DNA from: Mobula hypostoma
Taxonomy: Eukaryota
Length of the DNA stretch: 64,000 nucleotides
Direction of reading: 5' to 3'
Assembly (NCBI RefSeq): GCF_963921235.1
Contig: NC_086108.1
Coordinates: forward strand, 67,334,001 to 67,398,000
Shown: positions 133 through 60,572 of the stretch, piece after piece
Numbering within the stretch: the stretch's first letter is position 1
Layout of the letters: every line of letters begins with the position of its first letter
The notes under the pieces: generated by a model
Database searches by the model: none
What the model was told of the DNA's origin: nothing
The model's input: the letters and a program-made list of their open reading frames with translations, nothing else
Position numbers and translations under genes: made by a program

Positions 133-1552
133 CAATTCAGTAATAACTGTGGAGATATCACAGAAACTGTAGCCTCTCATCATTCACAGCAAGATTTACA
201 CAAAGTTCATGATGAATTCACAAGTAAACCTAACTTGCTTCTTGTGCTAGAAGATAATCATGATGTCATTTCACTAGTTGCTAATGGGATATACAGAATA
301 GATTATGAAGCTCTTCAAGGAGTGATGGCAGCTAAATAACGGAAAAAGTCCCAAGAACAGATCATAAACATTAAATCAACATATGTTTAGCATGCCCAGT
401 GAACCTCAGACCATCAGACACAGGAACAGAATTAGACCATTCATAACATTCAGTGTGTTCTGCCAGTCAATCATGGCTGATTTATTATCCTTCTCAACCC
501 AATTATACTGCCTTTTTCCTGTTACCTTTGACACCCTTATTAATCAAGAACTTATCAAGCTTCGCTTTAAATATACCCAGTGATGGCCTCCTCAGCCTTC
601 TATGGCAATAAACTTCACAGAATCCTGCCCTCTGGCTAAAGAAATTCTTCATCTCTATTGTCATGAGATGTCATGCTCTTAAATCTGCCAAAACTGACAT
701 GAACATCATCAATACCCAAAGGAGTTTTGCCGACGTATGTATATACTCTGGTTGTAATTGCTAATGATGGGAACAAAAATATTCTTTTTACCATTCCAAA
801 GTCTGATCTTACATTTACATTCATTGGTGTTTCACAAACTACAAGAAAAGTTGATGGACAGTATTTAACAGTGATGAATTCAGAAAGTTTGCACTCAGTT
901 TTTTCCTAAGTTCAAAGTTAATTTGCTAAATTGGCTCTCTATCTGGGTGCCAGTGGTGAAGGAGCAAAGCTTACCTAGTGCTGAAGAACTCATCCACTCT
1001 ACTTGTGCTGAAGTCAAGTCATGGAAACAAGAACCTTTACGGACTTTACAAAGCTGCATTGTGGCGTTCAACAATGAAACTGTTGCAATCTCCACTACTG
1101 ATGCATATACGTATGCCTTCCAAAGATACCCTGCCAGATTTTATGGTCAAGATCTAAGCAAGTGCAACTGAGCCAAGGGAAAACAGCAGGAATACAAATG
1201 AAATTCAGACAGACACTATTACAGCCTGGGGCTACAGTTCCTGTGAAACACAGTAAACGTACAGACTAGCAAGCAACTACATATGACATTTGCAGGGACT
1301 CCACAAAAGGATCCATGATCTTAGTATTACGTAGTTAACAAAGCATTAACATAAAACACCATCATTCCTTAAAACACTCAAAGCACCACTCATTGTTGGT
1401 GAATCCCAAATGGATAACCTCAAGAGTGATGAAGAAACTGAGCAACTCCAGATGATACAAGCTTCGATGGCTGCACATCTGGAAATCGCTAAGCTTCAGC
1501 CATCTCATGAGCAGAAACGTCTGTTTTATCTGAAGGACTTTGTAACAAAGTG
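133..1552 (+). pseudogene. Unidentified decayed coding-like region, interrupted by a CR1 3' end; possibly an env/fusion-glycoprotein-like remnant
   Basis: Successive + strand stop-free stretches: 133-339 (QFSNNCGDITETVASHH...YEALQGVMAAK), 727-909, 923-1171 (Cys-containing) and ~1349-1552 (...QMDNLKSDEETEQLQMIQASMAAHLEIAKLQ...). No family recognised. Confidence 0.25.
408..657 (-). mobile_element. CR1 LINE 3'-end fragment
   Basis: Reverse complement of the CR1 3' terminus (agaattagaccattc...aatcatggctgatttatt...ctctggctaaagaaattc), similar to 37300-37570 and 9650-9780. Confidence 0.75.
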
Positions 1553-1744
1553 ATACAGGCTTGCAGGAAAATATAAAGACTAAGAAAATCAGAATGTTTC
1601 TTTTAATTAACATGGGGAGGGATGCAATTTTATTTTGTTTTACTGTATATTATTCTGCAATGCTATTACATTTCACTTTTATAAAGATTGTGTACTTCAG
1701 TGAACAGTTTAGAGCATGCTCAGCATCTCTGCTGTGGCAACAGA

Positions 1745-1805
1745 GAAAGCAGCCCCCAATAGACCCCTAACCGGGGGTCTGTGGACCCCAGTTTGGGAAC
1801 CCCTG
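1745..1805. mobile_element. hAT-type MITE terminus
   Basis: Ends ...tttgggaacccctg, the reverse complement of a CAGGGGTTCCCAA hAT terminus like those at 4239 and 26721. Confidence 0.5.
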
Positions 1806-1999
1806 CTTCATCATGCTTGATAGAGAGTACATGTAAGTAATTGCTTATAAGTGCTAAAACAGTCAAAATGTGCAGTTTTAGTCCTTTAAAATCAAACAGG
1901 TCTTTGCAGCTCCTGAGGCATCAGAATTGAAAGTTTTAAACCTTGAAAATAATGAAGTTTTGAAATGCATTGCTACGGCCCTGCATTTTACAACTTTTG

Positions 2000-2485
2000 C
2001 ACATTGAATTCTCTAATTTCAAGTAACCTACCTTTCTCTTTGTCCCTTTTCTCTCTCCTGCTGATCTACCTGGTTCCTCCTACATACTCTCAATACCTAA
2101 CCCCCAGCCCTGTTCACTCAATGTCGTTCCACTCCTTCAGCTACTCCATCTGCCTATCATCCCCACATGCCTTACACTAAGCACCTCCACCGACTGTTAC
2201 TGTCTGCCCACCCAACTTCCCTGATTTGTCTCCATGCTTCATCTTCCTTTTTATGAGATTCTATCATCTGCAGCCCTTTGTTGCCACTACCTATCACCTC
2301 CCAGTCTCTGTCACGATTTCCACTCTTCCATCTGTCTTTTACTCCTCCTCACCCATATCATTAGCCAGTTCTCATTCCACCCCCACCCCAACCACTCACC
2401 TCTTTATAATGGCTATCTCACCCCTCTTCTTTCAGTCTGGATAAAGGATCTCAGCCCAGAGAAACAACTGTCCATATCCCTCTAG
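2000..2485 (+). mobile_element. Old Penelope-like element 3' region with degenerate hammerhead
   Basis: Pyrimidine-rich tract followed by ttcagtctggataaaggatctcagcccagagaaacaactg, a degenerate version of the motif at 60443-60479. Confidence 0.55.
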
Positions 2486-4587
2486 CAATTTGATTTTTTT
2501 TTTGCTAGAGTAATGTTAATATCTGACAATAATGTAAAAATGATGATATTGAACACATTACCCATGGCGCAGCTTGTACAATTCAAAGCAATGAAAGGAA
2601 GTGTTGAATATGATGTATTATAATGGGCAGATGATCCAACCACACCTGTTTTACCCTGTCGTATGAAGTTTATTCTAACATCTGTTTCTGCTGGTATGGA
2701 ACCAGCATGCTAAAAGTCCCTCTTTGTTTAGGAACCTATAGTTTAATTAATACTAAATCAAATCTTAATGGGATGTCTAAAACAGACAAATCGTCCACAA
2801 GCAGCTTTTATAGTCATCCACTGAAGTACTTGAACTCAGTCTGACGTTACCATAAGCTTAAAATTATGAGGTTACCAAAAGTATAACATGACTCGCCAAA
2901 TGAAAACTCTATTTTCTGTAAAAGAGGTATACCCGAGGGAGGTTATTAACCAGAGGTAAAACTTTGAAGGTAATCTGAAAGTTCTCTCTGGGTCTCTAAA
3001 GTGGCATAACAAAATTGCAGGATATCAATCTCACCATTACAACTCATACTATTCAGTCCTAACTGGTTGCATTCCACATATGATATTTTCAGAGTCCCAG
3101 AAGAACCACTGTAATCCTAAATGCATTTAATATATTTAGGTTATTAATTTTTCTTCTGACCTTCAGTCACATTCTTAACCAAAGGTTTACATGGTAAACT
3201 GATATAAAATTGCTTACTTTTGCGCATCTCTTCCCTTTGGAGAGAAAAAAATATTTTTTTTCAATCAAAAGCCAAAAGCCTTGATTTAATTTTGGATTAC
3301 AAATCAGACAAGTGACAATAAGGTGGAATTGGGCTGGTGGAGGAGGAGAGAGTGGGTAGGTGGGTGAGGTTTGTTGGTTAGGGATCGGAATGTGAGTTTA
3401 AGCTAGCCAGAAGTTGAATACATCAATTACAATTATTTGCAGTCAGCTCCTTATTCCCCTTTAAATTATTTTTGAATTCAGATGTGGAAGAGAATTCCAG
3501 GTTTAAATGAGGCTTGTGGTAATGGGTCAACCTCTGCCATTCAACCAGACAACAGGTGATCAGGGCCTGGAATCCACTTTCCATCCCAATCCCACATCCT
3601 GTGATTTGATTGGCACTCAAAAATCTCATAATCATAACCTTGAATGTACTCACCAGCAACCCCCTCAAGTTGAGGATTCTAAAGACTTACAAGCAGCCAT
3701 GCAATTATTCTTTTTCCTTATAGCAGTTACAAATGGCTGATCATTAATCTTATGATCATGTCCTGTTGTGAACTTTCCAGTTTCAGTCACTCAAAGATTA
3801 GTGTGGAAGAACGGTGTCTGAAGTTGTGAGACATTGGCACTAGAATTGGGGAAGGAGGGAGCTGTTTCAATGGGACAGACTCCACCCTGAACCATCTGGG
3901 AGCAGGGCCCTGTCAAAGCATATAACTATGGCTGCAGATAGGGTTTTAAACTAAATTGTAGGGGGCGGGGGTGTGATCAACAGCTTGGAAAAGGTCGGAT
4001 AAAGTAAAAGGGAAGGAGAGTGCAGGAGAGATTACTGAAGTCTCCAGAATAAAGGAGAAAAATTTTAGAAAGGGATAAGAATGTAACTTCAGGCACTCTG
4101 GAGACAAAATTGAAAAGAAGAGTGGTAAATACAGGACTGGAGGTGTTATATACGGATGTATACAGTATACAAAATAAGGTAAATGATCTTATAGCACAGT
4201 TAGAAATTGGTAGGTAGGATGTTATGGTCATCATAGAACAGGGTTCCCCAATTAGTTTTCCACAAGGGCCAAATTATGTCAAGCACGCCAAGCCAAGCGC
4301 CAGAACTTCCCGGCTTTTTTTTATTGCGCCAGTAAGTTGTTTTATGGGCAGATGTTGTTGTTGCTGCTATTACCATTATTATTTTTATTATTAGTAGTAG
4401 TAGTAGTAGTAGTAGTGGTAGTAGTAATAATTTAGGCCTGGGATTCTCAAAGCCTGTGTTGTGGATCACACAAGAAAAAAAATCATCCTTGAAACAAAAT
4501 AAGTCCAAAACCAACCATTTAATTATGACTTCAGCTATCACAACTGTCGGCTGTCACATTGAGAACTCATCTGGGACTTAAAATACA

Positions 4588-10720: not shown

Positions 10721-12084
10721 AGAACGCTTTTTCCTAACTTACTTCAGTGACAGTGAAGAATGAGTAATTGGTGTGATTCACGTACTGTATATATTCTTTA
10801 AAAAGTTTTACATTTGCTTCCTGAGTGTTGTGTGATGATTTTCCAGATGGTCATAAGAATAAGCAGGTCAAAGCAAAAAGAGGTTCACACTTAACAAGAA
10901 AATAATATTGAAAAGGTCCCACATTTTCATTTACACATTTATATACCTGGAAGTATTTTGGAGCATATATTGGAATTAATGTGGTACAGTAATTGCAAAA
11001 TAAATATTGGAAGTAGCCGCCAGGTGAAACGACATCTGTACAGAAGATGGCAACCCAAGTTATCATCTCTGTTTTTCTCTCCACATGCCTGATCTGCTAT
11101 GTATTTTTTTCTGTTTTTATGTTAATTTACTAAATTTTTTGTGCATCCTTTCCAATGTAATCATATCTTTCTGGTAATATGGAGATCAACCTGTATACAC
11201 CACTCAAACTAGGCCCTGACTAGTGTTGTATTTAGTTCTAGTGTTTATTGATAGTAATTTAAGGATAAATTTCTCCAAAGATATGGACGATATTTTATAC
11301 ATATGAAATATTTATCTCTGAAGTACACCCACCTGAGAGAGCAGGCAAAGCTTCGTCTTAATTATTCACATAAAAGATTGTATCTCGTATGGTGCAGCAA
11401 TATCTGCACTGATATGTCAGCCTAGATGTTAATCTTAAGTCACTTGAAATGCAGTGCACTGATTCAGAGCAAAATATCTATACCTTAAAACTATCACAAC
11501 CCAAACCTGGCAGTGCCAGGCTGGTAAGTGTAACTTCAGAAAGCAAAAAAAAACTTTGCAAGTTTTCTATCTCTGTTGAGGGAAAATGGATTTCTGTTGG
11601 AGCAGGTATAGAAAGAATAATATCAATAGCAACACACACAAAATGCTGGAGAATTTCAGCAGGTCAGGCAGCATCTATGGAAAAGAATAAAGAGTCAAGT
11701 AGTATCAATAATACTGCTGCTGGGGCAAAGGAGGTGCAATTTCTATGGAGATTAATAATTTATTTTGCTGCCACAAAACAAATTTCGGTGATAAAGCTAA
11801 TCTGAATTGGAGATTTCATTGAGGCAGTGTTTGGAATAGGGAGAAGGAAAATCTCTTACAATTCATTTGATTTGGAAAGTAAGAACCAGAGCCATATAGG
11901 ATTGATTCGCAAACACTGTCTAAACAGTGAATACCATTAAAACACAATGGGTCATCTGGCTACATAGAAAATTATCTCTATGTAGACAGTCTACTCTTGT
12001 TTCATTCCAGGGAAGTGAAAATGTACCAACTGAAGATAAGTTATTGGAGTTACTGTATATAAAAACAGTAAGATGTTTTTCATC

Positions 12085-12300: not shown

Positions 12301-12893
12301 GCATTAAGATCTCACAAAATCTGAAAGAAAACCAGCTTTTGCTGCAAGCTAACAACTTGTTTTATCTCATGAAAGGTATCGGCCTGAAACATTGACTGTT
12401 TATTCCTCTTTAGAGATGCTGCCCGAGTTGCTGAGTTCATCCAGCAGTTCGTGTTTGTTGCTCTGAATTTCCAGTATCTGCAGAATCTCTTATGTTTAAA
12501 AATTGTTTTATCTGAGGTTTGCATGAAGTAGCAAGTGGACTTCCCTTCAATCCTTTTTATTTCACTTTCAAAAATATTTTGACGTAATTTCAAATGTAAT
12601 TAAAAGCCACATCAATCCAATGTAGATGTGGGACAATAAGGAGTTGGTTAAAATATATGATACTCTCTGGTATACTCATGCAGGGGATTCGTTGCTACAT
12701 CTACAATCGGTCTATTGAAGAAGATGGGGGTGAGAGGTCACTCCCTCCAACAAGCAATCAAGTCCTTGTCAAATGCAGCAGAAGAAAGCAGTAATTGGGT
12801 TTGGATTAAAAGGAAAGACAACAACTGGGCTGCAAGATGAAGACAGGAGGGTATGCAATTGAGGGGGGTGTATCTGGGATGCCAGGTAGCACC

Positions 12894-12962
12894 GTTGAGC
12901 CCCCTGGAGACGTCGTGGGCTTATCAACGAAACGTCAAAGAAGGAGGGTGCCCACCTGATGA
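12894..12962 (+). ncRNA. Candidate non-circularly permuted (pseudoknotted) hammerhead ribozyme
   Basis: GUC triplet at 12912-14. Stem III GACGU 12909-13 pairs ACGUC 12932-36. Stem I GUGGGC 12915-20 pairs GCCCAC 12950-55. CUGAUGA at 12956-62 and GAAA at 12929-32. Stem II-like GUUGA 12894-98 pairs UCAAC 12924-28. Confidence 0.65.
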
Positions 12963-13252
12963 CCCCAATGACGCACCTACCCTCCCTCCTTGTCACCACT
13001 CCAAACCCACTGCCAACTTCGAGAGTGCTGGCTTACCATAGGGATTGAAACATCAAGTCCTAGTAGCTCTACTGATCCTCTGGGAGAAAATCAGTGACTG
13101 CTGTGAAAATGCAGCTGGCGACAAGGGAAAGACCGTATGACAGCTGGAGAGACAGCTGACAGGAGGAAATAGACCCCAACGGGGCTGTTATGGGCTAGCT
13201 ACCCATAACAGCAGGTTCCGTCACCTTGTCAGGGCATAAGAGCCACCCTCAT

Positions 13253-16200
13253 TTGGCTACAGAAAGTTTAAAAAGAAGTATACCCCCAGAGTCTGCGAGA
13301 GCAAGAAGACTCTCTGACTGACCTCCCGATAACGAACCTTGGCATGGACACGACAATGAATCAAGAAAATGGCAATACTCTTGAGAAAGCAGCAGCTAGA
13401 TATGTTCTTCAGACTTGTAGGTGTAGCTGGACTAAAGTAACATCAACTCGTGGTCTAAAAATTCATCAAGGACAGAAGAAATGCTTGAAAATCTCCAACC
13501 CAGGGCCCCGCATTGACCAGATTCTGTTAAGAGGATCAATGCAGATGTGAGCCTGATCTTAAGTGGCATCAAGGGATCAGCAGAAAAGAAGTTGGAGAGG
13601 GTGGGTGACTTGATCTACAGCTACGGAAAGGAGAAATTTGGAGTGAAGGAACAAGTCAGCAGGAAAGACATGCCTCCTCCCCCCAAATCCCGTCGTCTCC
13701 AGGAAATCCAACGACTTGCTAAAGAGAGAAGAGGCCTGAGGAAGTTGTGGAAAAAAGCAGCAGCCGAAGAAAGGGACGGCATCAACCTCCTTCAAGTGGA
13801 CCTAAAACAGAGGCTCTCGAAACTGCGCAGAGCAGAGAATCTAAGGAAACGACGCAAAAAGAAGGAAAAAACAAGAACAGACTTCTTCAAAGATCCCTTT
13901 AAATATGTAAAAGGCATTTTCACAAAAGAGAAAAGCGGATACTTGAAAGTATCAAAAGAGGAGGTTAAAAGACATCTCAGAATCATCCATACTGCTAAGC
14001 AAAAAGATGAACCGATATTTGTCCCAGCTGACATCCCACCAATCTCACCCCCACAACATCAATTTAACATCAGCCCTCCCAAGCTGAGCGAGGTGAAAGA
14101 GGCAGTGAAGAAGGCAAGATTGGCATCAGTGCCAAGCCCTAACGGTGTTCCGTATTGTGTCTACAAGAACAACCTAGATGTTCTGAAATTCCTTTGGAAA
14201 AACATGAGGGTTGTGTGGGAAAAGCAAATTATCCCCAAAGTCTGGAGAAGAATGGGGGGAGTTCTGATCCCAAAAGAAAAGAATTCGTCCACCATCGAGC
14301 AGTTTTGCCAAATAAACCTTCTGAATATAGAGGACAAGATCTTTTTGGGCAAAGACTTACAAAGTATCTGAAACAAAATCATTTGATTGATACGTCAATC
14401 CAAAAGGCTGGCATAGCAGGCTTCTCGGGATGCCTTGAACATACCAGCGTCATATGGCATCAAATCCAGATGGCTAAGAAAGAAAGAAGGAATCTGCTTG
14501 TCTTGTTCCTTGACCTGACCAATGCCTATGGATCAGTTCCTCATTCCCTACTGTGGACTGCTTTTGAATTCTTTCAGGTGCCTGCAACAACAACAAATCT
14601 GGTAAAACACTACTTCCAGGATCTGCAAGTTTGTCTCACAAGATCAGACTTCACCACAACGTGGCAACCACTGGAAGTAGGCATCATGGCGGGGTGCACC
14701 ATCTCCCCATTGGCCTTTACTATGGCCATGGAGCTCATTATCAGACCCTCAAAATGGGTTGCAGGAGGAAAAGGGCTGCAGTTTGGTCAATGGTTACCAC
14801 TGATATGAGCCTATATGGACGATATAACAATACTGACGATAACTGTCCCCTGCACCAGGAGACTTCTGGAAAAGCTTCATCAAAACACCACATGGGCGAG
14901 GATGAAGATCAAGTCCAGCAAGTGCAGAACCATCTCCATTGTCAAAGGTCAAGTCACGGATAAAAGATTTTAGATTGACGGGACACCTGTCCCAACTGCT
15001 TCAGAAATGCCAGTGAAGAGCTTGGGCCAATGGTATGATGCTAAGCTCAAGGACACTGAGCAGTTTGAATAACTCAAAAAGGATACCATCATGTACATAG
15101 CTCACATCAACAAGACCTTGCTGCCAGGAAAACTCCAGCTGTGGTGCTTCCAGTTCGGCATACTCCAAGACTCATGTGGCCTTTAACAGTGTATGAAATC
15201 CCCATCAGCAAGGTTGAAAAGCTCAAAAGAATGATCAGCACACATGTAAATCAGTGGCTTGGACTTCCACAATGCTTAAGTCCTGTTGGACTGTACGGGA
15301 ACGGCAAATTGGAATTACCAATTGCAGGTCTCGTGGAAGAATTCAAATGCACCAAAGCAAGGTTGGTCATAACCCTCACTGAATCTGAAGATACCGTTAT
15401 TCGAACAGTGGCCCCCCGTGTGGCAACGGGGAGGAAGTGGACTCCATCTGAAGCTGTTCAGAGTGCTATGTCTGCTCTTCGCTTCAGGGATTTGGTTGGC
15501 CAAGTCCAACATGGGACAGCAGGGCTCAGGCTCGTCCCAAAAGCTCCTCAGTGGCACAAGGCAACATCACTGCAGAAGAGACGGCTCGTGGTGGAGGAGT
15601 TGAGAAGACAGGAGGAGGCAGAGCGAAACGACTGGGCCATCTCAATGGCCAAGCAGGGCCAATGGACTAATTGGGAGAGCCTGGAAAAGAGGAAACTTAG
15701 CTGGCGTGACATCTGGGAGATGGAGGGATCTCGACTAAGTTTTGTCATCAGAGCCACTTATGACCTCCTACCCACACCCCAGAACCTGAACCAGTGGTGG
15801 GGAGAAGACCCTGCTTGCTCTCTTTGTCAAGCACCCAGATCACTAAGGCACATTTTAACAGGATGCACCGTGAACCTCACCCAGAGGCGGTACACTTGGT
15901 GGCATAACCAAGTTCTCAGACAGCTGGCATCAGTCTTGGAACAGAGGTGAATTGTCATAAATGCTCTCCCACAAACATCGGCAGGAAATGTCCACATTAC
16001 ACGATTTGTGCCAGCAGGCCAACCTCCAGAGCACCATATAACATCAAAAGATGTAAGCATTCTGCAGGTTGCTCGGGATTAGAAAATGGACGTGGACTTG
16101 GAAAAAAAGCTTGTGTTTCCCCCAGACATTGCAGCTACATCACTCCGGCCAGACACGGTCCTGTGGTCCACAACAGCCAGGCTGGCATATGTTGTGGAAT

Positions 16201-16487
16201 TGACAGTACCATGAGAAGATGGTGTCGAAGAAGCTTATGAGAGGAAAAAGACCAAGTACTCTGAACTGGCAACTGAAGCTGCCCAGAACGGCTGGAAGAC
16301 CAAGATTTTCCCTGTAGAAGTGGGATGCAGGGGATTCGTTGCTACATCTACAATCAGTCTATTGAAGAAGATGGGGGTGAGGGGTCACTCCCTCCAACAA
16401 GCAATCAAGTCCTTGTCAAATGCAGCAGAAGAAAGCAGCAATTGGATTTGGATTAAAAGGAAAGACAACAACTGGGCTGCAAGATGA
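13253..16487 (+). pseudogene. Hero-type ZF-RT-CCHC-RLE polyprotein, disrupted by stops and frameshifts
   Basis: ORF fragments 13344-13550, 13547-14371, 14155-14808 and 15141-15950, then manual translation to ...WIWIKRKDNNWAAR* (stop 16485-87). Confidence 0.88.
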
Positions 16488-16804
16488 AGACAGGAGGGTA
16501 TGGAACTGAGGGGGGTGTATCTGGGATGCCAGGTAGCACCGTTGACACAAAGCACTGCAGATGCCAGAAAACAGAAAATGAGGGTGGTAGGCAAAAGCAA
16601 GAAATGAACAGCAAATTAGGTGTAGAATGTAGAAACAGAAACAGCTAATATTTCAGATCTGAAACTTTTTGCCAGAACTGGGAAAGAGGGAAAAAGAAGT
16701 TAGTTTTCAGAGGCAGTGAGCAAGGGATGGGTAGAACAAAGGGAATAATTCTGGTGGTGCAAGTCCAAAAGGCTTAATGGAACAGGTATCATCACACTTA
16801 GCTT

Positions 16805-35409: not shown

Positions 35410-37572
35410 CTAGAGGAGGCAGACAAAGATGTCATGATGCAGAAGCCAGGAATGGAAATGACTCGATGATTGGGAAGTTTTTAAAATCCAACAAAAGGCA
35501 ACTAAAAAAGCTATAAGAAAGGAAAAGATAAAATATGAGGGAAAACTAGCCGATACCAAGCAGGATACCAAAAGCTTTTTCAGTTCATATAAAGAATAAA
35601 AAGGAGGTGAGAGTTGATATTGGACCACTGGAAAACGATGCTGGTGAGGTAGTAATGGGGGACAAAGAAATGGCAGATGAACTTAATGCTACTTTGCATC
35701 AATCTTCACTGTGGAAGATACTAGCTGTATGCCAGATGTCCGTGAATGCCAGGAAACAGGAGTGAGGGAGTGAGTGCCATTGCAATTGCAAAGGAAAGAA
35801 TGCTAGGTAAACTCAAAGGTCTTAAGATGGATAAGTCACCTGGGCCAGATGGACTACATCCCAGAGTCCTGAAAGAGGTTGCTGAAGGGACAAAGTATGC
35901 ATTGATCATGATCTTTGAAGAATCACTTGATTCTGGCATGGTCCCGGAGAACTGGAAGATTGCAAATGTCATTCCACTCTTTAAGAAGGGAGGAAGGCAA
36001 AAGAGAGGAAATTATAGGCCAGTTAGCTTAACTTCGGTGTTTGGGAAAGTGTTAGAGTCCATTATTAAGGATGAGATTTCAGGGTGCTTGGGGACAAATG
36101 ATAAAATAACTCAAATTCAGCATGCTTTCTGTAAGGGAAAATCTTGCCTGACAAATCTGTAGGAATTCTTCGAAGAAGTAACTAGCAGGGTGGACAAAGC
36201 AGTCAGTGGATGCCATTTACTTAGATTTTCAGAAGGCATTTGTGCTTAATTGAGGCTGCTTAACAAGATAAAATCCTATGGTGTTGCAGGAAAGATACTG
36301 GCATGGATAGAGGAATGGCTGACAGCCAGGAGGCAGCAAGTGGGAATAAAGGGGGCCTTTTCTGGTTGGCTGCTAGTGGTGTTCCTCAGGGGTCAGGATT
36401 GGGACCACAACTTTTCACATTGTCTGTCAGTGATTCAAATAGTGGAATCGATGGCTTTGTGGCAAAGTTTGCAGATGATACAAAGATAGGTGGAGAAGTA
36501 GGTAGTGCTGAGGAAGCAATACGATTGCAGCAAGACTTAGACAAATTGGAAGAATGAGCAAAAAAGTGGCAGATGGAATACAATGTTGGGAAATATATGA
36601 TAATGCATTTTGGTAAAAGGAACAATAATGCAGACTATTATCTAAGTGTGAAATTCAAACATCAGGGGTACAAAGTGATTTAGGAGTCCTCGTGCATGAC
36701 TCCCAGAAGGTTAATTCATAGGTTTAGTCTGTGGTATAGAAGGCAAGTGCAATGTTGACATTTATTTCAAGGGGAATAGTATATAAAAACAAGGAGACAA
36801 TGCTGAAGCTTTATAGGACACCAGTCAGGCGACACTTGGAATATTGTCGCAACACGCATCAGAGTTGCTGGTGAACGCAGCAGGCCAGGCAGCATCAACC
36901 CAAGGGTTGACCCAAGGGTCTCGGCCCAAAACATCAACTGTACCTCTTCCTAGAGATGCTGCCTGGCCTGCTGCATTCACCAGCAACTTTGATGTGTGTT
37001 ACTTGAATTTCCAGCACCTGCAGAATTCCTCATGTTTGCGCCTTGGAATATTGTCAACAGTTTTGGGCCCTATATCTCTGAAAAGATGTGTTGTCATTGG
37101 AGAGAGTCAGAGGAGGTTTACAAGGATGATTCTGGGAATGAAGGGGTTAACAGATGAGGAGCATTTCGCAGCTTTGGGCCTGTACTCTCCAGAATTTGGA
37201 CGAATGCATGGGGATCTCATTGAAACCTACTGAATGTCCAAAGGTCTAGATAAGGTGGATGTGCTCTGGTGGGGGCATTCTGAACTAAAAGGCACAGCCT
37301 CAAAACAGAACAGAAGTAAGGAGGAATTTTTTTTAACCAAAGTGTGGTGAATCTATGGAATGCTCTGCCACAGACTGTGATTGAGGCCAAGTCTGTGGGG
37401 ATATTTAAAGCAGAAGTTGATAGATTCCTGACTGGTTGGGGCATCAAGGGATATGGTGAATGGGCAAGTGTAGGGGTTGGGTGGGATCCAGGATCAAGCA
37501 TGATGAAATGGTGGAGCAGACTCGATGGGCTGAATGGCCTAATTCTGCTCCTATGTCTTATGGTCTTATGGA
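35410..37572 (+). mobile_element. CR1 LINE ORF2, 5'-truncated
   Basis: KSPGPDGLHPRVLKE, WKIANVIPLFKKG..NYRPVSLTS, SGVPQGSGLGP, KFADDTK, then the 3' UTR ending tgtcttatggtcttatg. Confidence 0.92.
36849..37041 (+). mobile_element. Short fold-back PLE terminal insertion with 14-bp TSD
   Basis: TSD CTTGGAATATTGTC at 36835-48 and 37042-55; ~48-bp inverted arms around a degenerate hammerhead. Confidence 0.85.
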
Positions 37573-38342: not shown

Positions 38343-41300
38343 AGTGGTAAACCATATATATGCTGTAACTGGGTTAACTGTCTGGACACACCCCTCTGCT
38401 GACTGCCCCTGTGGCTCCTCCCACAGATTCCTGTATAAAGGTGTTTCGTCTTGTCCCTCCCCCTCAGTCCGGGGGCAGACACTCACCATGGAGGTCATAT
38501 TGTACAGCGAATAAAAGCCTTTCAGTATTTTACCCAACTTCAGTCTTTTAGAGTTATTGAAGGTGCTTCAATTTTATTCGCTGTACATTTTAAAGCATGG
38601 AACACACGCTGAGACCCGACAGGTTAGACCTCAATCCGCAAACGCCTGAAGCTGGAAACGCTTTCGAAATCTGGCTGGCCTGCTTCAAAGCGTACCGAGA
38701 GGAGATTAAAGCGACCGACCCCCTAGCGAATTGCAGAGCTCTACTCTCCAGGGTCAGTCCACAGGTCTATTCGCTAATCAGAGACCAGCCGAGTTACGAC
38801 GGCGCGATGAGTGCCCTCAAAGGACAATACCTGCGGCCGATAAACAGCGTCTATGCTTGGCACCGCTTAGCGACAAGGCAACAACGCCCGGGGAATCAAG
38901 TGCTGAGATCGTCCAGGCCCTACGGACACTCGTGTGAGCCTGCAATTGCCGGGAGCTGACGGCGGCGCAGCATGCAGAACTCCTAGTGAGAGACGCCTTC
39001 ATCACGGGGACCAGGTCAGTGTATGTGTGCCAGCGGCTGTTGGAAAAAGCCGATCTTACCTTAAGTTCGGCGATCGAGCTGGCCGACACACTGGAGGCCG
39101 CTCTGCATAATTCCGAGGCTCTCCAGGCATGCGATCTCCCGATGGCCTCGTGGGCACCGCAGACCCCGCAACCCACCTGCGAATCGACCCCGGCTGCCCC
39201 CAGTCATGAGTCCGCGAAATGCTACTTCTGTGGACTGGAGAAGCAGCCCCGGAAACGCTGCGCGGCCCGACAAGCTACCTGCTCCAGCTGCGGAAAGGAG
39301 GGCCACTTCGCCAAGGTCTGTAAGTCCAAACCGCGAGCGGGATTGAGCAGCACCGCGTGCGAGACGTGGGGGTTGCTATCTTGCCTGCTGCCATCTTCCC
39401 TGCACACCGCCACCACGTGCCAGACATGGGGGCGGCCATCTTGGTCAGCTCCCCCTCCCACCACCTACGACCAACGGGTGCTCACGGGGCACCCCACCAC
39501 GCCGGACCAAGACAGTGACTCAACCCTGGCTTCCGTGACCCTCGACCAAAGCGCTCCCCACCAGCTCGCAAGGTCAATGATGGACATCTTGGTGGAGAGG
39601 CGCAGGACAAGCTGCCTGTTTGACACGAACAGCACGGAGAGTTTTATCCACCCGGACACGGTGCAGCATTGCGGACTCGTGATACGGCCGGTAAGTCAAA
39701 GGGTCTCCATGGCTTCCGGGTCGCATACAACAGACATCTGGGGGGGATTGTGTAGCGACGCTAGTGGTGCAGGGCACAGAATATCGAGACTTTACGTTAC
39801 TGGTCATGCCTCAACTGTGTGCCCCTGTGCTATTGGGGCTCGACTTCCAGAGCCACCTGAAAAGCGTGATAATGAAGTATGATGGGCCCCTCCCACCAAT
39901 TACTGTCGTAAATCCCCAGTTTTGTAGGGATATGTCACATACCCCGCTACTGACCACACACACACACCGACCCGCCCAACACCATGCCAACTGCCGCACC
40001 ACTGACGCCACTTGCGGCCTCTCCACCCTCAAGATCCCTCCCCCACTGCTGTTCGCCAACCTGACCCCAGACTGTAAACCCATGGCAACTAAAAGCAGGA
40101 GGTACAACGCGGGGGGACAAAGCTTTCTTTAAGTCAGAGGTGCAGCGGCTGCTCAGGGAGGGGGTCATTAAGGCAAGCACAAGTCCTTGGACGGCTCAGG
40201 TGGTCGTTGTTCGGAATGGGGAGAAGGATAGGATGGTCGTGGACTATAGCCAGACCATCTATAGGTTCACGCAGCTCGACGCGTACCCTCTACTCCGCAT
40301 CGCGGATATGGTCAATCAGATAGCACAGTACAAGGTGTACTCAACCATAGACCTAAAATCCGCTTACCATCAGCTCCCCATCCGCCGGCAGGACCGCCCT
40401 TACACTGCTTTCAAGGCGGACGGCAGACTTTATCACTTTCTGCGCGTCCCCTTCGGTGTCACGAATGGTGTATCTGTCTTCCAGAGGGAAATGGACTGGA
40501 TGGTGGACCAGTGCCAACTGAAGGCCACGTTCCCATATCTGGATAACATCACCATCGGCGGTCACGACTGGTAGGATCACGACAACAACCTCCAAAAATT
40601 TCTCCAACGGCCAAATCTTTCAACCTCACCTATAACAAGGACAAGTGTGTATTCGGGACCACCCGACTTGCTATCCTTGGGTGTCTTGTGGAAAATGGAG
40701 TCATTAGCCCTGACCTCGACCGTATGCGCCCCCTGCTGGAACTCCCTCTTCCCAACACCCTCAGAGCCCTCAAAAGGTGCCTGGGCTTCTTTTCATATTA
40801 CGCCCAATGGGTCTCTAACTATGGAGACAAGGCCCGCCCCCGGTTGAGTCCACCACATTCCCCCTCTCAGCCGAGGCCCGCGTGGCCTTCAACGCATAAA
40901 AGGGGACATTGCCAAAGCAGCAATGCATGCGGTGGATGAGGCCATTCCCTTCCAAGTAGAGAGTGACGCCTCCGACTATGCACTGGCTGCTACCCTCAAC
41001 CAGGCGGGAAGACCAGTGGCGTTCTTCTCCTGTACCCTTCAAGGCCCTGAAATTCGGCACTCTGCGGTGGAGAAAGAGGCCCAGGCCATAGTGGAAGCTA
41101 TTAGGCACTGGAGGCACTATCTCACCGGCAAAAAGTTCACCCTGCTAACTGACCAGCGCTCAGTCGCATTCATGTTTAATAACCAACAGCGGGGCAAAAT
41201 CAAAAATGATAAAATTCTGAGGTGGAGAATCGAACTCTCCACCTACAACTATGACATCATGTACAGGCCTGGGAAGCTCAACGAGCCCTCTGATGCCCTA

Positions 41301-42777
41301 TCCCGGGGAACGTGTGCCAGCACGCAGATCGACCGGCTATACGCCCTACATGTAGATCTTTGCCACCTGGGGGGTCACCTGGCTTTTCCACTTCGTGAAA
41401 GCCCAGAACCTGCCTTACTCCATTGAGGAGATCAGGACGATGACCAGGGACTGCCAAGTCTGCGCAGAGTGCAAACCGCACTTCTACCGACCCGAAAAGG
41501 CACAACTCATCAAGGCCACCTGCCCCTTTGAGCAACTGAGTGCTGACTTTAAGGGCCCCCTTCCCTCCACCGACCGCAATGTGTACTTTCTGAACGTCAT
41601 CGATGAGTACTCACGGTTCCCCTTCGCCATCCCCTGCCCCGACACCACTACCACGTCAGTTATAAAAGCCCTGCACAAGCTCTACACTCTGTTCGGATAC
41701 CCATGCTATATCCACAGTGACAGAAGGTCCTCGTTTATGAGTGACGAGCTGCGCCAATACCTGCTGGCTAGGGGAATTGCAACTAGTAGGACCACGAGCT
41801 ATAATCCCCGGGGGAATGGACAGGTGGAGAAGGAGAATGACACAGTGTGGAAAGCCACACTCTTAGCCCTCAGGTCAAAGGAACTGCTGGTCTCTCGCTC
41901 GCAGGAGGTCCTTCCCGAGGCACTCCACTCCATCCGCTCCCTGTTATGCACAGCCACCAATGCTACCCATCATGAGCGGCTCCTTTCTTTTCCCAGAAAG
42001 TTGACCACTGGGACCACCCTACCAACTTGGCTGACGTCCCCGGGGCCAGTGCTGCTCCGGAAACATGTGAGGAGCAATAAATACACCCCGATGGTCGAGA
42101 GGGTTGACTTACTTCATGCGAACCCTCAGTATGCCTATGTGGTTTTACCTGATGGGCGGGAGGACACGGTCTCCATCCGCAACCTGGCGCCCGCAGGAGC
42201 ACTGGTCTCCTACCCTGAACACTCCATGGTGACTATTGACCCCGTACCCACCGATGTATGTACCCACCAGACACCACGCACTCCAACCCTACACAGACAC
42301 CACACGACACTCCCATACCGGGCGCGACGCACACGCACGAGGGATTAACAACGCCTAACGTGCTGGCACCTCAAGTCAGGCCGGGGCCAGCACAACCGCC
42401 GTCGCCGGTGCGATCACCACCGGTGCTACGTAGATCACAGCGACGGACTCGACTGCCTGATAGACTTGACCTGTAGATATACTTGTTTTAAATACTGTCA
42501 GTCACTTCACCCCACGGGACTCTTTTTTTTTAAAAAGGAGGGGTGAATGTGGTAAACCAAATATATGTTTTAACTGGGTTAACTGTCTGGACACGCCCCT
42601 CTGCTGACTGCCCCTGAGGCTCCTCCCACAGAGTCCTGTATAAAGGTGCTTCGCCTTGCCCCTCCCCCTCAGTCCGGGGGCAGACACTCACCATGGAGAT
42701 CGTATTGTACAGCGAATAAAAGCCTTTCAGTATTTTACCCAAATTCAGTCTTTTGGAGTTATTGAAGGTGCGCTTCA
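38343..42777 (+). mobile_element. Full-length Ty3/Gypsy LTR retrotransposon (gag-PR-RT-RNaseH-IN), inactivated
   Basis: LTRs 38343-38570 and 42548-42777 (about 14 substitutions plus a 2-nt indel by eye). PPT aaaaaggaggggtgaa. CCHC CSSCGKEGHFAKVC, protease LFDTNS, RT IDLKSAYHQ..YLDN, RNaseH ESDASD, integrase DFKGP..HSD..GNGQVEKEN. Confidence 0.97.
38597..42476 (+). pseudogene. Gypsy gag-pol, multiple frameshifts and stops
   Basis: ORF fragments 38597-38959, 38986-39882, 39764-40132, 40140-40574, 40688-40939, 40923-41426 and 41395-42348. Confidence 0.93.
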
Positions 42778-57990: not shown

Positions 57991-59910
57991 TGTCATCAGC
58001 AAACTTACTAACCCATCCCTTCACTTCCTCATCCAGGTCATTTATAAAAATCACGAAGAGTAAGGGTCCAAGAACAGATCCCTGAGGCACACCACTGTTC
58101 ACCGACCTCCATGCAGAATACAACCCGTCTACAACCATTCTTCGCCTTCTGTGGGCCAGCCAGTTCTGGATCTACAAAGCAATGTTCCCTTGGATCCCAT
58201 GCCTCCTTACTTTCTCAATAAGCCTGCGATGGGATACCTTATCAAATGCCTTGCTGAAATCCACATACACTACATCTACTGCTCTTCTTTCATCAATGTG
58301 TTTAGTCACATCCTCAAAAAATTCAATCAGGCTCGTAAGGCACAACGTGCCCTTGACAAAGCTATGTTGACTATAACTAATCATATTATACCTCTCCAAA
58401 TGTTCATAAATCCTGCCTCTCAGGATCTTCTCCATCAAATTACCAACCACTGAAGTAAGACTCATTTGTCTATAATTTCCTGGGCTATCTCTGCTACCTT
58501 TCTTGAATAAAGGAACAACATCTGCAACCCTCCAATCCTCCAGAACCTCTCCCAGCCCCATTGATGATTCAAACATCATCGCCAGAGGCTCAGCAATCTC
58601 CTCCCTCGCCTCTCACAGTAGTGTGGGGTACATCTCGTTCGGTCCCGATGACTTACCCAACTTGATGCTTTCCAAAAGCTCCAGCACATCCTTTTTCTTA
58701 ATATCTACATGCTCAAGCTTTTCAGCCTGCTGCAAGTCATCACTACAACCACCAAGATCCTTTTCAATAATGAATACTGAAGTAAAGTATTCCTTAAGTA
58801 CCTCTGCTATTTCCTCCACTTCCATACACACTTTCCGTCTGTCATACTTGATAGGTCCCATTCTTTCACATCTTATCCTCTTGCTCTTAACATACTTGTA
58901 GAATGCCTTGGGGTTTTCCTTAATCCTGCCCGCCAAGGCCTTCTCGTGGCCCCTTCTGGCTCTCCTAATTTCCTTTTTAAGCTCCCATCTGTTAGCCTTA
59001 TAATCTTCTAGATCTCTAATATTATCTAGCTCTCTAAACCTTCTGTAAGCTTTTCTCTTCTTCTTGACTAGATTTATTACAGCCTTTGTACACCACAGTT
59101 CCTGTACCCTACCATAACTTCCCTGTCTCATTGGAACGTACCTATGCAGAACTCCACACAAATATCCCCTGAACATTTACCACATTTCCTCCGTACTTTT
59201 CCCTGAGAACATCTGTTCCCAATTTAAGCTTCCAATTTCCTGCCTGATAGCCTCATAGTTCCCCTTACTCCAATTAAATGCTTTTCTAACTTATCTGTTC
59301 CTATCTCTCTCCAATGCTATTGTAAAGGAGATAGAATTATGATCACTATCTCCAAAATGCTCTCCCACTGAGAGATCTGACACCTGACCAGGTTCATTTC
59401 CCAATACCAAATCAAGTACAGTCTCTCCTCTTGTAGGCTTATCCACATATTGTGTCAAGAAACCTTTCTGAGCACACGTAACAAACTCCACCCCATCTAT
59501 ACCTCTTGCTTTAGGGAAATACCAATCGATATTTGGGAAATTAAAAGCTCCCGTCACGACAACTCTGTTATTATTACACCTTTCCAGGATCTGTTTCCCT
59601 ATCTGCTCCTCGATATCCCTGTTACTATTGGGCGGCCTATAAAAAATACGTAGTAAAGTTATTGACCCCTTCCTGTTCCTAACCTCCACCCACAGAGACG
59701 CCGTAGACAATCCCTCCATGGCGTCCATCTTTTCTGCAGCCGTGACACTATCTCTGATCAACAGTGCCACCCCCCCACCCCCTTTGCCTCCCTCCCTGTC
59801 CTTTCTGAAACATCTAAAACCCGGCACTTGAAGTAACCATTCCTGTCCCTGAACCATCCAAGTCTCTGTAATGGCCACCACATCATAGCTCCAAGTACTG
59901 ATCCATGCTC

Positions 59911-60572
59911 AGGTTTCACCGATGTACCGGGAGCACCGGATGCAATAGATGACCCCAACAGACTCACAAATGAAGTGTTGTCTCACCTGGAAACCAAATG
60001 CAGAATGGGGGACTGCTTCATCGAGCACCTCCACTCCATCTGCCACAACAGACAGGATCTCCCGGTAGCTACCCACTTCAACACTGCTTCCCATTCGCAT
60101 TCAGATATGTTCATATATGGCCTCCTTTACTGCCATGATGAGCCTAAACTCAGGTTGGAGGAGTTTCACCTCATATACTGTCTAGGTAGTCTCCAGCTCC
60201 TTGGTATGAACATAGAATTCTCCAACTTCCGGTAATTCCCTTCCTCTATCCCTATTTCACTCTGCCCACTCCCCCTGCTGCCTATCACCTCCCTCATGGT
60301 TCCGCCTCCTTCTTCTACTACCCATTGTTTTCCTGCCTATGACGTCCCTGCTTCCCCTCCCCCACCCCTTTGTCTTTCAAATTACTGGTCTTTCAACTGA
60401 ACCGACAAGCATTCTTCAAATCCTTCTCCCTCCTTCTTTGTTCAGTCCTGACGAAGGGTTCCGGCCCGAAACGTCGACTCATCGTTTCCACTGATGCTGC
60501 CCGACCTGCTGAGTTCCTCCAGCGTGCTGTGAGTGTTGCTTTGATCCCAGCATCTGCAGATTATTTTGTGTT
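59911..60572 (+). mobile_element. Penelope-like insertion with 5' inversion and 15-bp TSD
   Basis: TSD TACTGATCCATGCTC at 59896-59910 and 60573-60587. Minus-strand GIY-YIG start (GVIYCIRCSRYIGET, 59911-59990) is fused to the plus-strand continuation (ETKCRMGDCFIEHL). Confidence 0.92.
60444..60479 (+). ncRNA. Minimal type I hammerhead ribozyme of the PLE
   Basis: AGUC-CUGACGA-A-GGG uuccgg CCC-GAAA-CGUC-GACU: stem I AGUC/GACU, intact core, palindromic ACGU stem III, predicted cleavage after C60475. Confidence 0.85.

Follow-up and report, generated by a model that had tools for sequence, protein, structure and literature searches.

More-than-unit copies and a predicted split-core hammerhead motif in a probable HERO retrotransposon of Mobula hypostoma

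The window analysed here comprises 64,000 nucleotides (nt) of the Mobula hypostoma genome (NC_086108.1, positions 67,334,001 to 67,398,000), and all positions below are those of this window. Between 12678 and 16545 it holds a long interspersed nuclear element (LINE) that, by its sequence, encodes a reverse transcriptase (RT) and a restriction-like endonuclease (RLE) and is probably a HERO element. Long copies of this element pass one unit length and continue into a second, and the repeated part carries a hammerhead-like motif whose core appears to be opened between two strands that are normally joined. We lean towards the reading that this ribozyme cuts out a monomer, that the monomer closes to a circle, and that the RT primes internally and goes round it more than once. 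A broader proposal, that a clade of R2-like LINEs moves through a closed protein-coding circular RNA with a hammerhead of a seventh topology, an internal start set by hairpins and a source copy that, like LTRs, is rebuilt in every cycle, is offered more tentatively and with somewhat less than even confidence. The parts are known ones, namely hammerhead, RLE LINE and pseudo-long terminal repeat (pseudo-LTR); the surprises are the split-core topology and the rolling template that we infer.

More-than-unit copies and where they end

The earlier note on this DNA had described two 221-nt direct repeats with six mismatches, 12678-12898 and 16325-16545, and alignment agrees with it at 97% identity. 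Each repeat consists of the final 160 nt of the open reading frame (ORF), the stop (16485-16487 in the downstream repeat) and 58 nt of untranslated region (UTR). As also described there, the upstream repeat continues via the GUC at 12912-12914 into the 5′ UTR and then the ORF, and the downstream repeat ends at the equivalent of 12898, 16 nt short of C12914; poly(A), a microsatellite and a target-site duplication (TSD) were looked for at the ends of the window copy and none was seen. The description of the insert as one unit plus a partial second pass likewise stands, and this layout recurs in 25 of 40 long copies. Being in phase with the cleavage site is a property of the window copy only; judged from a natural copy, the unit measures 3,869 nt and family copies end 159 nt beyond the predicted cut. 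The window copy is a dead product of 1.06 units; its unusual 3′ end reflects either a later deletion or off-site priming.

Searches of the 3.48-Gb genome of the species gave, at first look, 1,508 candidates for the last 159 nt of the unit, 194 for the middle of the ORF and 94-110 for the 5′ end; 40 candidates were scored per search and 30 were taken as loci. The long-copy set contains 40 places matching a 5′-UTR query (the window and 39 others as 10-kb stretches), covers 40 of 110 candidates and, through its query, favours long copies. Comparisons across species used the best 80 of 129 metagenome stretches encoding relatives. The sequencing runs numbered 24, all of them assembled contigs and one on record as RNA, and four were compared with the element.

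The family has a well-defined 3′ end. Among 77 distinct copies whose 3′ end could be seen, 70 end at 13070-13079 and two at 13084-13088, and the window copy alone ends at 12898. The expectation that 3′ termini would track the cleavage site failed once they were plotted: with a query upstream of the cut, 0/29 non-self copies end at the cut and 26/29 end at 13070-13077, and with a query on the last 159 nt, 0/29 start at 12915, the nearest start lying at 12896. Free 3′ ends show a short stutter in 19/68 and run on into the 5′-UTR bases GAT in 11/68. No TSD signal was found in 69 copies relative to a cross-copy null, and its absence is therefore typical of the family. The normal 3′ end is absent from L206 and six other long copies, the window included; farther downstream, none was found for L206, L211, L214, L221, L235 and the window copy. 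Contig ends lie loose at 13072-13073 in three runs, and assembled contigs cannot reveal cuts, circles or strand. A ribozyme at 13073 that would make the 3′ end was considered and rejected, with no hammerhead core visible by eye and no Rfam match; since the ends there spread over about 10 nt, they are also unlike a ribozyme cut. Because normal copies all keep the whole motif, priming at the 3′ end of a cut monomer is excluded, and since the ends lie 159 nt past the cut, the RT would start internally rather than at that 3′ end.

In the long-copy set, 15 copies stop short of one unit, 11 stop at 13068-12930 and 14 cross the cut again, so that 25/40 copies holding the 5′ UTR exceed one unit; this is the frequency of head-to-tail junctions that the earlier note had proposed to examine. 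The junction at the cut is seamless, with 1 gap opening in 1,309 cells compared with 76 in 43,181 elsewhere (119 segments), and of the 14 copies at risk, 0 have their end 14 nt or less from the predicted cut. At the 13073/13074 junction, 19/22 read-through copies are in exact register and 0/22 stutter, with 9 nt missing from one copy (L205) and 3 nt, immediately downstream, from two others; the search pattern for this junction missed three further copies. Among copies reaching 13075, 25/26 continue and one starts there. In other species, copies L078, L081, L083, L126 and L140 have terminal repeats that are 93-99% identical, and L061 and L073 were assembled with exact terminal overlaps of 55 and 111 nt.

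The repeats also carry a record of descent. In 18 elements with both repeats, 17 non-CpG minority variants are shared between them (null mean 6.1, 0/5,000), and omission of the commonest variant site leaves 8 shared variants against 1.9 expected (19/5,000). The commonest site itself is concordant in 12/13 elements (Fisher p=0.014), and no upstream-specific haplotype was found among the 18. Because the repeats share lineage variants, the upstream repeat is regenerated from the same lineage as the downstream repeat. Chance insertion of a truncated copy beside another could be imagined in a family with about 1,500 candidate 3′ fragments. However, 25 exact-register junctions in 40 long copies, the shared lineage variants and the same layout in other species make this extremely improbable, and recurrence of the layout rules out a chance neighbour and marks the arrangement as a family trait. 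The earlier note had held that chance would be indicated by copies ending well downstream of the motif and rarely carrying upstream 3′ duplications. The first is what we find but the second is not, as such duplications are not rare in long copies (25/40), and ends well downstream of the motif favour a circle rather than refuting it.

A hammerhead-like motif with a split core

Many of the metagenome relatives carry the same motif behind the ORF. Its strands run 5′ to 3′ as stem II, an extra stem P, and stem III with NUH and stem I, followed by the partner strands in the order stem II partner with GAAA and stem III, P partner, and stem I partner with CUGAnGA. The hammerhead core (CUGAnGA, GAAA, NUH and the C3-G8 pair) is present in 27 non-redundant motifs, which were chosen without a stem II requirement and come from homologues at 31-65% protein identity. 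Five Watson-Crick pairs of stem II form with the upstream partner in 24/27 of these motifs, compared with 6/640 cross comparisons. Stem II directly after CUGAnGA was found in 0/27, and block C (Table 1) is thus not unbroken.

Covariation was evaluated in a MAFFT alignment made with no structure input, using 28 of 34 rows (six near-duplicates were left out). Stems I, II and III have 87.5% of cells paired and 94 double changes, levels reached in 0/500 shuffles, and slid controls gave 33-44% pairing; seven alignment rows are visibly misregistered. The G10.1-C11.1 pair is invariant, and C3-G8 is replaced by U-A in two rows, a swap that is also known from the hammerheads of Penelope-like elements (PLEs; PMC4209133). 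Collectively, these sequence comparisons lend good support to a split core, interrupted between A9 and G10.1, as a topology common across the clade, and self-cleavage after C12914 is predicted.

A descriptor of the full motif was drawn up after viewing these sequences and requires its features, so that the strand and shuffle controls are the ones that apply. On the ORF strand it matches 29/80 metagenome loci; the other strand and five shuffles each gave 0 matches, and the window has one, at 12929. It is passed by 15/60 own-genome loci, as would be expected once copies decay. Among 35 loci that include the end of the ORF and sufficient flank, 8 have no passing motif, and two of these appear degenerate. 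The additional helices were evaluated by comparing self with cross pairing. Stem P has a self mean of 5.9 bp against 4.25 for cross comparisons and a duplex energy of -10.3 kcal/mol, and the possible closing helix P0 has a self mean of 8.4 bp against 6.0, with 5 bp in the window copy, where it partly competes with a hairpin at 12872-12887.

Rfam gave no gathering-level match in the window and no hammerhead match at E<=5 in 12700-13300. With no Rfam match, with a nested minimum free energy fold at the site that is not better than that of shuffles (z 0.84), and with stem II unable to follow CUGAUGA, a canonical hammerhead of type I, II or III was ruled out.

The closest known RNAs are the type-SGC hammerheads (HRIMA-1; Eckert et al. 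2023, PMC10085705), which have the same core and the same 5′-to-3′ order of cut site, GAAA and CUGAnGA, and in which stem I is likewise joined to stem II by a short linker and an additional stem connects the far sides of the two. In type-SGC, however, stem II directly follows CUGAnGA, whereas here it lies upstream in 24/27 motifs and never after. Type-SGC RNAs come from metatranscriptomes and cleave in vitro, whereas the present motif belongs to animal retrotransposons and its cleavage is a prediction. According to that paper, CUGAnGA and its adjacent stems never lie more than 1-2 bases apart, and known genomes are said to hold no such RNA except one GCS candidate.

Internal start, template and alternatives

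The read-through copies have a conserved array of four short hairpins directly past the 3′ end, and in a set of 8 sequences, double changes affect 11/18 predicted pairs of this array. Five families offer both a terminated and a read-through copy; in these, the 3′ end lies 18, 15, 13, 15 and 16 nt before the hairpin motif, and the distances from 3′ end to cut in the same families are 159, 154, 123, 89 and 109 nt. Terminated copies lack the motif. As the end thus tracks a sequence that is absent from terminated copies, the simplest reading is that RNA lying beyond the start site positions the RT, which would prime internally. A typical source copy has the hairpin motif once, ahead of the ORF; a start at this motif therefore requires that the 3′ end of the ORF be joined to the 5′ end, whether in a circle, by jumping over a nick or in the transcript of a dimer. 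The array of one relative (L118:280-430) has at least five repeats rather than four.

These constraints can be combined in a cycle. A more-than-unit copy with a ribozyme on each side of the ORF would be transcribed, and cutting by both ribozymes would release a 3,869-nt monomer whose ends are held paired by stems II, III and P and could be ligated by the ribozyme or by an RtcB-type ligase. The element's protein would bind the four-hairpin motif and prime target-primed reverse transcription about 18 nt upstream, inside the circle; the RT would cross the ligation site after 159 nt and then copy the ORF. On finishing the round it would displace its own hybrid for a few hundred nt more, and this second pass would rebuild the upstream ribozyme and yield a competent source copy. 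A ribozyme-cut and re-closed template copied more than once around, as the earlier note had suggested, is the best explanation of the long copies and the seamless cut junction; a stop rate that is highest in the second pass and the single near-dimer among the 40 long copies also speak for it.

The fixed distance between 3′ end and hairpin motif could also be explained by a linear LINE RNA running from 13074 to 13073, with the four-repeat motif as an internal promoter and frequent template jumps at this point; the hammerhead-like fold would then be a non-catalytic pseudoknot that binds protein. The 9 nt missing at the L205 junction and the copy starting at 13075 fit such an RNA. However, the near-universal continuation past 13075 (25/26), the lack of stutter or duplication at the junctions (0/22), the free ends that run on into 5′-UTR bases and the retention of a catalytic core, including the double change from C3-G8 to U-A, all argue against it, and we regard it as improbable.

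A jump across a nick is another candidate mechanism. In such a nicked pseudo-circle the RNA would be cut without ligation, and the RT would prime near the 5′ end, copy 159 nt and jump, in a strong-stop-like transfer, to the 3′ end held nearby by the stems. The R2 RT is described as jumping end to end (PMC13708176, citing Bibillo and Eickbush 2004), the two ends would be pinned to each other by three or four helices, and the shared variants would be accounted for. Copies of 159 nt and a pile-up at 12915 would, however, be expected, and these are seen in 0/29 copies, with 0/14 at risk stopping near the cut; ragged junctions would also be expected, whereas the single gap opening in 1,309 cells would require a nearly perfect jump. 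We therefore consider this mechanism unlikely, and place it below the next.

Internal priming on long linear transcripts of rare dimer-like sources, with an uncut template as in PLEs, is in our view also unlikely, if the least so of the alternatives. The ribozyme would then be slow, or would serve stability or translation, and would not be needed for the architecture. This scenario has been drawn for the Anolis Poseidon PLE (PMC11167929), and it explains why the RT starts internally, why junctions are seamless and why copies do not pile up at the cut. One long copy, L206, has the ORF followed by the 5′-UTR motif; it resembles a 1.9-unit product, but amounts to 1.1 units, an excess of 419 nt, if its own 3′ end is where priming began. 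The source required, with an upstream repeat, the ORF and a second motif, was nonetheless found in 0/40 long copies (40 of 110 candidates scored). A static tandem source should also leave upstream-specific variants and shared flanks, and neither was found: among 109 junction flanks none is shared, bar one duplicate locus and one 72% generic repeat. The absence of shared upstream flanks among the 109 also led us to reject 5′ transduction.

Several observations weigh against the circular template that we favour. Cleavage, ligation and the circle are predictions from sequence, and the RNA data consist of assembled contigs. In the open-access literature we found no precedent for an insertion between A9 and G10.1 of the core, and none that was tested; PMC4209133 mentions just a single unpaired base at this position. 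For the one PLE examined in vitro, the hammerhead could be dispensed with, unprocessed RNA served as the principal template and none of the reads had its end at the cut (PMC11167929). When the sample is unbiased for 5′ extent, 6/29 copies pass one unit and 23/29 end within the final 700 nt of the first round. Per kb, copies stop at a rate of 2.35 near the 3′ end, 0.59 in mid-ORF, 1.6 over those final 700 nt and 3.5-4.4 in the second pass, and a circle alone is no explanation for the rise that sets in during the first round. Jumps among sibling RNAs from a single source would leave the same shared variants, and 1/13 elements is discordant at the main diagnostic site. Finally, the 3′ ends of the four non-window families come from one terminated copy each.

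The element, its relatives and significance

The ORF of the window copy is decayed, with stops, frameshifts and a deletion of about 200 nt at 13535, and an intact relative of 1,149 amino acids (P0001) aligns over 13302-16484 at 62-77% identity by tblastn. The single long ORF of the element has an RT domain (PF00078, E=4e-11) and, at the C-terminus, what we take to be a CCHC knuckle and a PD-(D/E)xK-type nuclease with its PD...E...K core, both read from the translation. The top solved matches of a 17-protein profile are R2 proteins, and named homologues come from teleosts and lancelets (Branchiostoma). No GIY-YIG endonuclease family match was found among the proteins of the window and its relatives, whose solved matches are R2 and L1. 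The fixed 3′ end, variable 5′ truncation and 5′ inversions are traits of RLE-type LINEs, and insertion sites are dispersed, the flanks of copies being unrelated. Inversions of the twin-priming type occur in L201, L218 and L222, and the inverted piece extends into the second pass in L201 (12977) and L222 (12884). The positions of all features are collected in Table 1.

Table 1. Features of the window copy and its predicted ribozyme motif
Feature	Coordinates	Strand	Basis
Second-pass segment, the 3′ 396 nt of the unit, seamless before the 5′ UTR; includes upstream repeat 12678-12898	12678..13073	+	unit map u3474-3869
Predicted stem II 5′ strand, G10.1 first, upstream of the core instead of after CUGAnGA	12894..12898	+	
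Predicted extra stem P 5′ strand, partner ~12940-12949, ties stems I and II	12899..12908	+	
Block S: stem III 3′ strand, GUC (predicted cut after C12914), stem I 5′ strand	12909..12920	+	
Block G: stem II 3′ strand, GAAAC (12929-12933), stem III 5′ strand	12924..12936	+	
Block C: stem I 3′ strand and CUGAUGA (12956-12962), no stem II after	12950..12962	+	
Possible closing helix P0, partner ~12854-12879, weaker support	12963..12982	+	
Fixed family 3′ end (mode 13073, range 13070-13079), putative RT start, here read through into the 5′ UTR	13041..13077	+	
Conserved 5′-UTR motif, four short hairpins with purine-rich loops; putative RT-positioning and/or translation element	13092..13174	+	
Single RT+RLE ORF, dead copy; start slightly upstream of first aligned residue	13302..16487	+	tblastn of P0001; PF00078
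CCHC-type knuckle (15816-15866) and restriction-like PD...E...K core (from 16149)	15816..16260	+	read from translation
Downstream 221-nt repeat, without the usual last 175 nt	16325..16545	+	

The HERO assignment rests on domain layout and host range. RLE LINEs of the HERO and R2 types likewise have a single ORF with RT, CCHC knuckle and RLE, and dispersed insertion (PMC4640811, PMC9004415, PMC13708176); for HERO, mostly non-specific insertion and occurrence in fish, lancelet and sea urchin are described (PMC9004415, PMC4640811). R2, unlike the window element, has a 5′ ribozyme like that of hepatitis delta virus and primes at the RNA 3′ end (PMC13708176). In the open-access literature, with Repbase and subscription papers outside the scope, we found no HERO element with a hammerhead, a more-than-unit layout, an internal start or a circle. 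The intact protein most similar to that of the window copy (79-80% identity in parts) groups with sequences from carp and hake, while the repeats of the window seem to be those of a cartilaginous fish; horizontal transfer of the element is possible. Two relatives (L111:274-5577 and L112:11-5740) have the same ribozyme-like motif, and in them the RLE is followed by a C-terminal domain of a ubiquitin-specific protease (PF00443, E ~1e-29), and other relatives have an N-terminal Ulp1 protease (PF02902, P0045).

PLEs (Cervera and de la Pena 2014, PMC4209133; Frangieh et al. 2024, PMC11167929) resemble the element in their partial-tandem pseudo-LTR, in the hammerhead within the repeat and in an internal RT start set by downstream RNA (PMC11167929), and a circle model has been proposed for them (PMC4209133). 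They differ in having a telomerase-like RT, a GIY-YIG nuclease and type I or minimal hammerheads, whereas the window element combines an R2-like RT and a C-terminal RLE with a triple-crossed split-core ribozyme; the pseudo-LTR layout of PLEs is thus present here, and their GIY-YIG nuclease and telomerase-like RT are not. In non-LTR retrozymes (PMC7229834; bioRxiv 10.64898/2026.07.22.740005), hammerhead-cut monomers are likewise circularised, and they are thought to be copied to head-to-tail DNA; the circles of hammerhead retrozymes are formed with RtcB (PMC7229834). Retrozymes are, however, non-coding RNAs of 170-400 nt with type I hammerheads, whereas the element is autonomous and 3.9 kb long. 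The 3,869-nt unit with its RT ORF does not have the short, non-coding and non-autonomous character of a retrozyme.

Other sequences in the window and the runs were also recorded. At 60448-60471 (+) lies a canonical-order CUGAnGA...GAAA motif, typical of Penelope-type hammerheads, in a frequent short repeat family with related repeats at 11649, 12415, 27848, 30912, 36851-37000 and 48281; the loose CUGAnGA...GAAA pattern is not above chance in the window (5 matches vs 5.6 expected). A second pair of direct repeats, 38344-38566 and 42549-42771 (223 nt, 94% identical, 4.2 kb apart), possibly marks the ends of a second element, and an RT-like stretch at 58049-59080 (-), with 20% identity to P0001, is distant and probably a fragment of another LINE. 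In the RNA run X18, compared with window 12500-16700, contigs of a diverged relative cover the 5′ UTR, ORF and 3′ region at a depth of 500-3,500; this relative may be a highly expressed element, and contigs cannot show expression.

The split-core motif bears on how hammerheads are classified. The published permutation scheme has six hammerhead forms in which CUGAnGA and stem II are inseparable, and the motif breaks this rule with strong covariation. The usual view is that priming by RLE LINEs takes place at the 3′ end of a linear RNA; an internal start on a circle, if true, would be a second route, and one convergent with PLEs. The regeneration of pseudo-LTRs becomes testable in an element that has intact relatives. 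Because the family consensus is a circular permutation, 5′ and 3′ ends are easily misplaced in annotation. Engineering of R2-like proteins for RNA-templated gene insertion is under way, and a member that uses a stable circle would, if true, be of practical interest.

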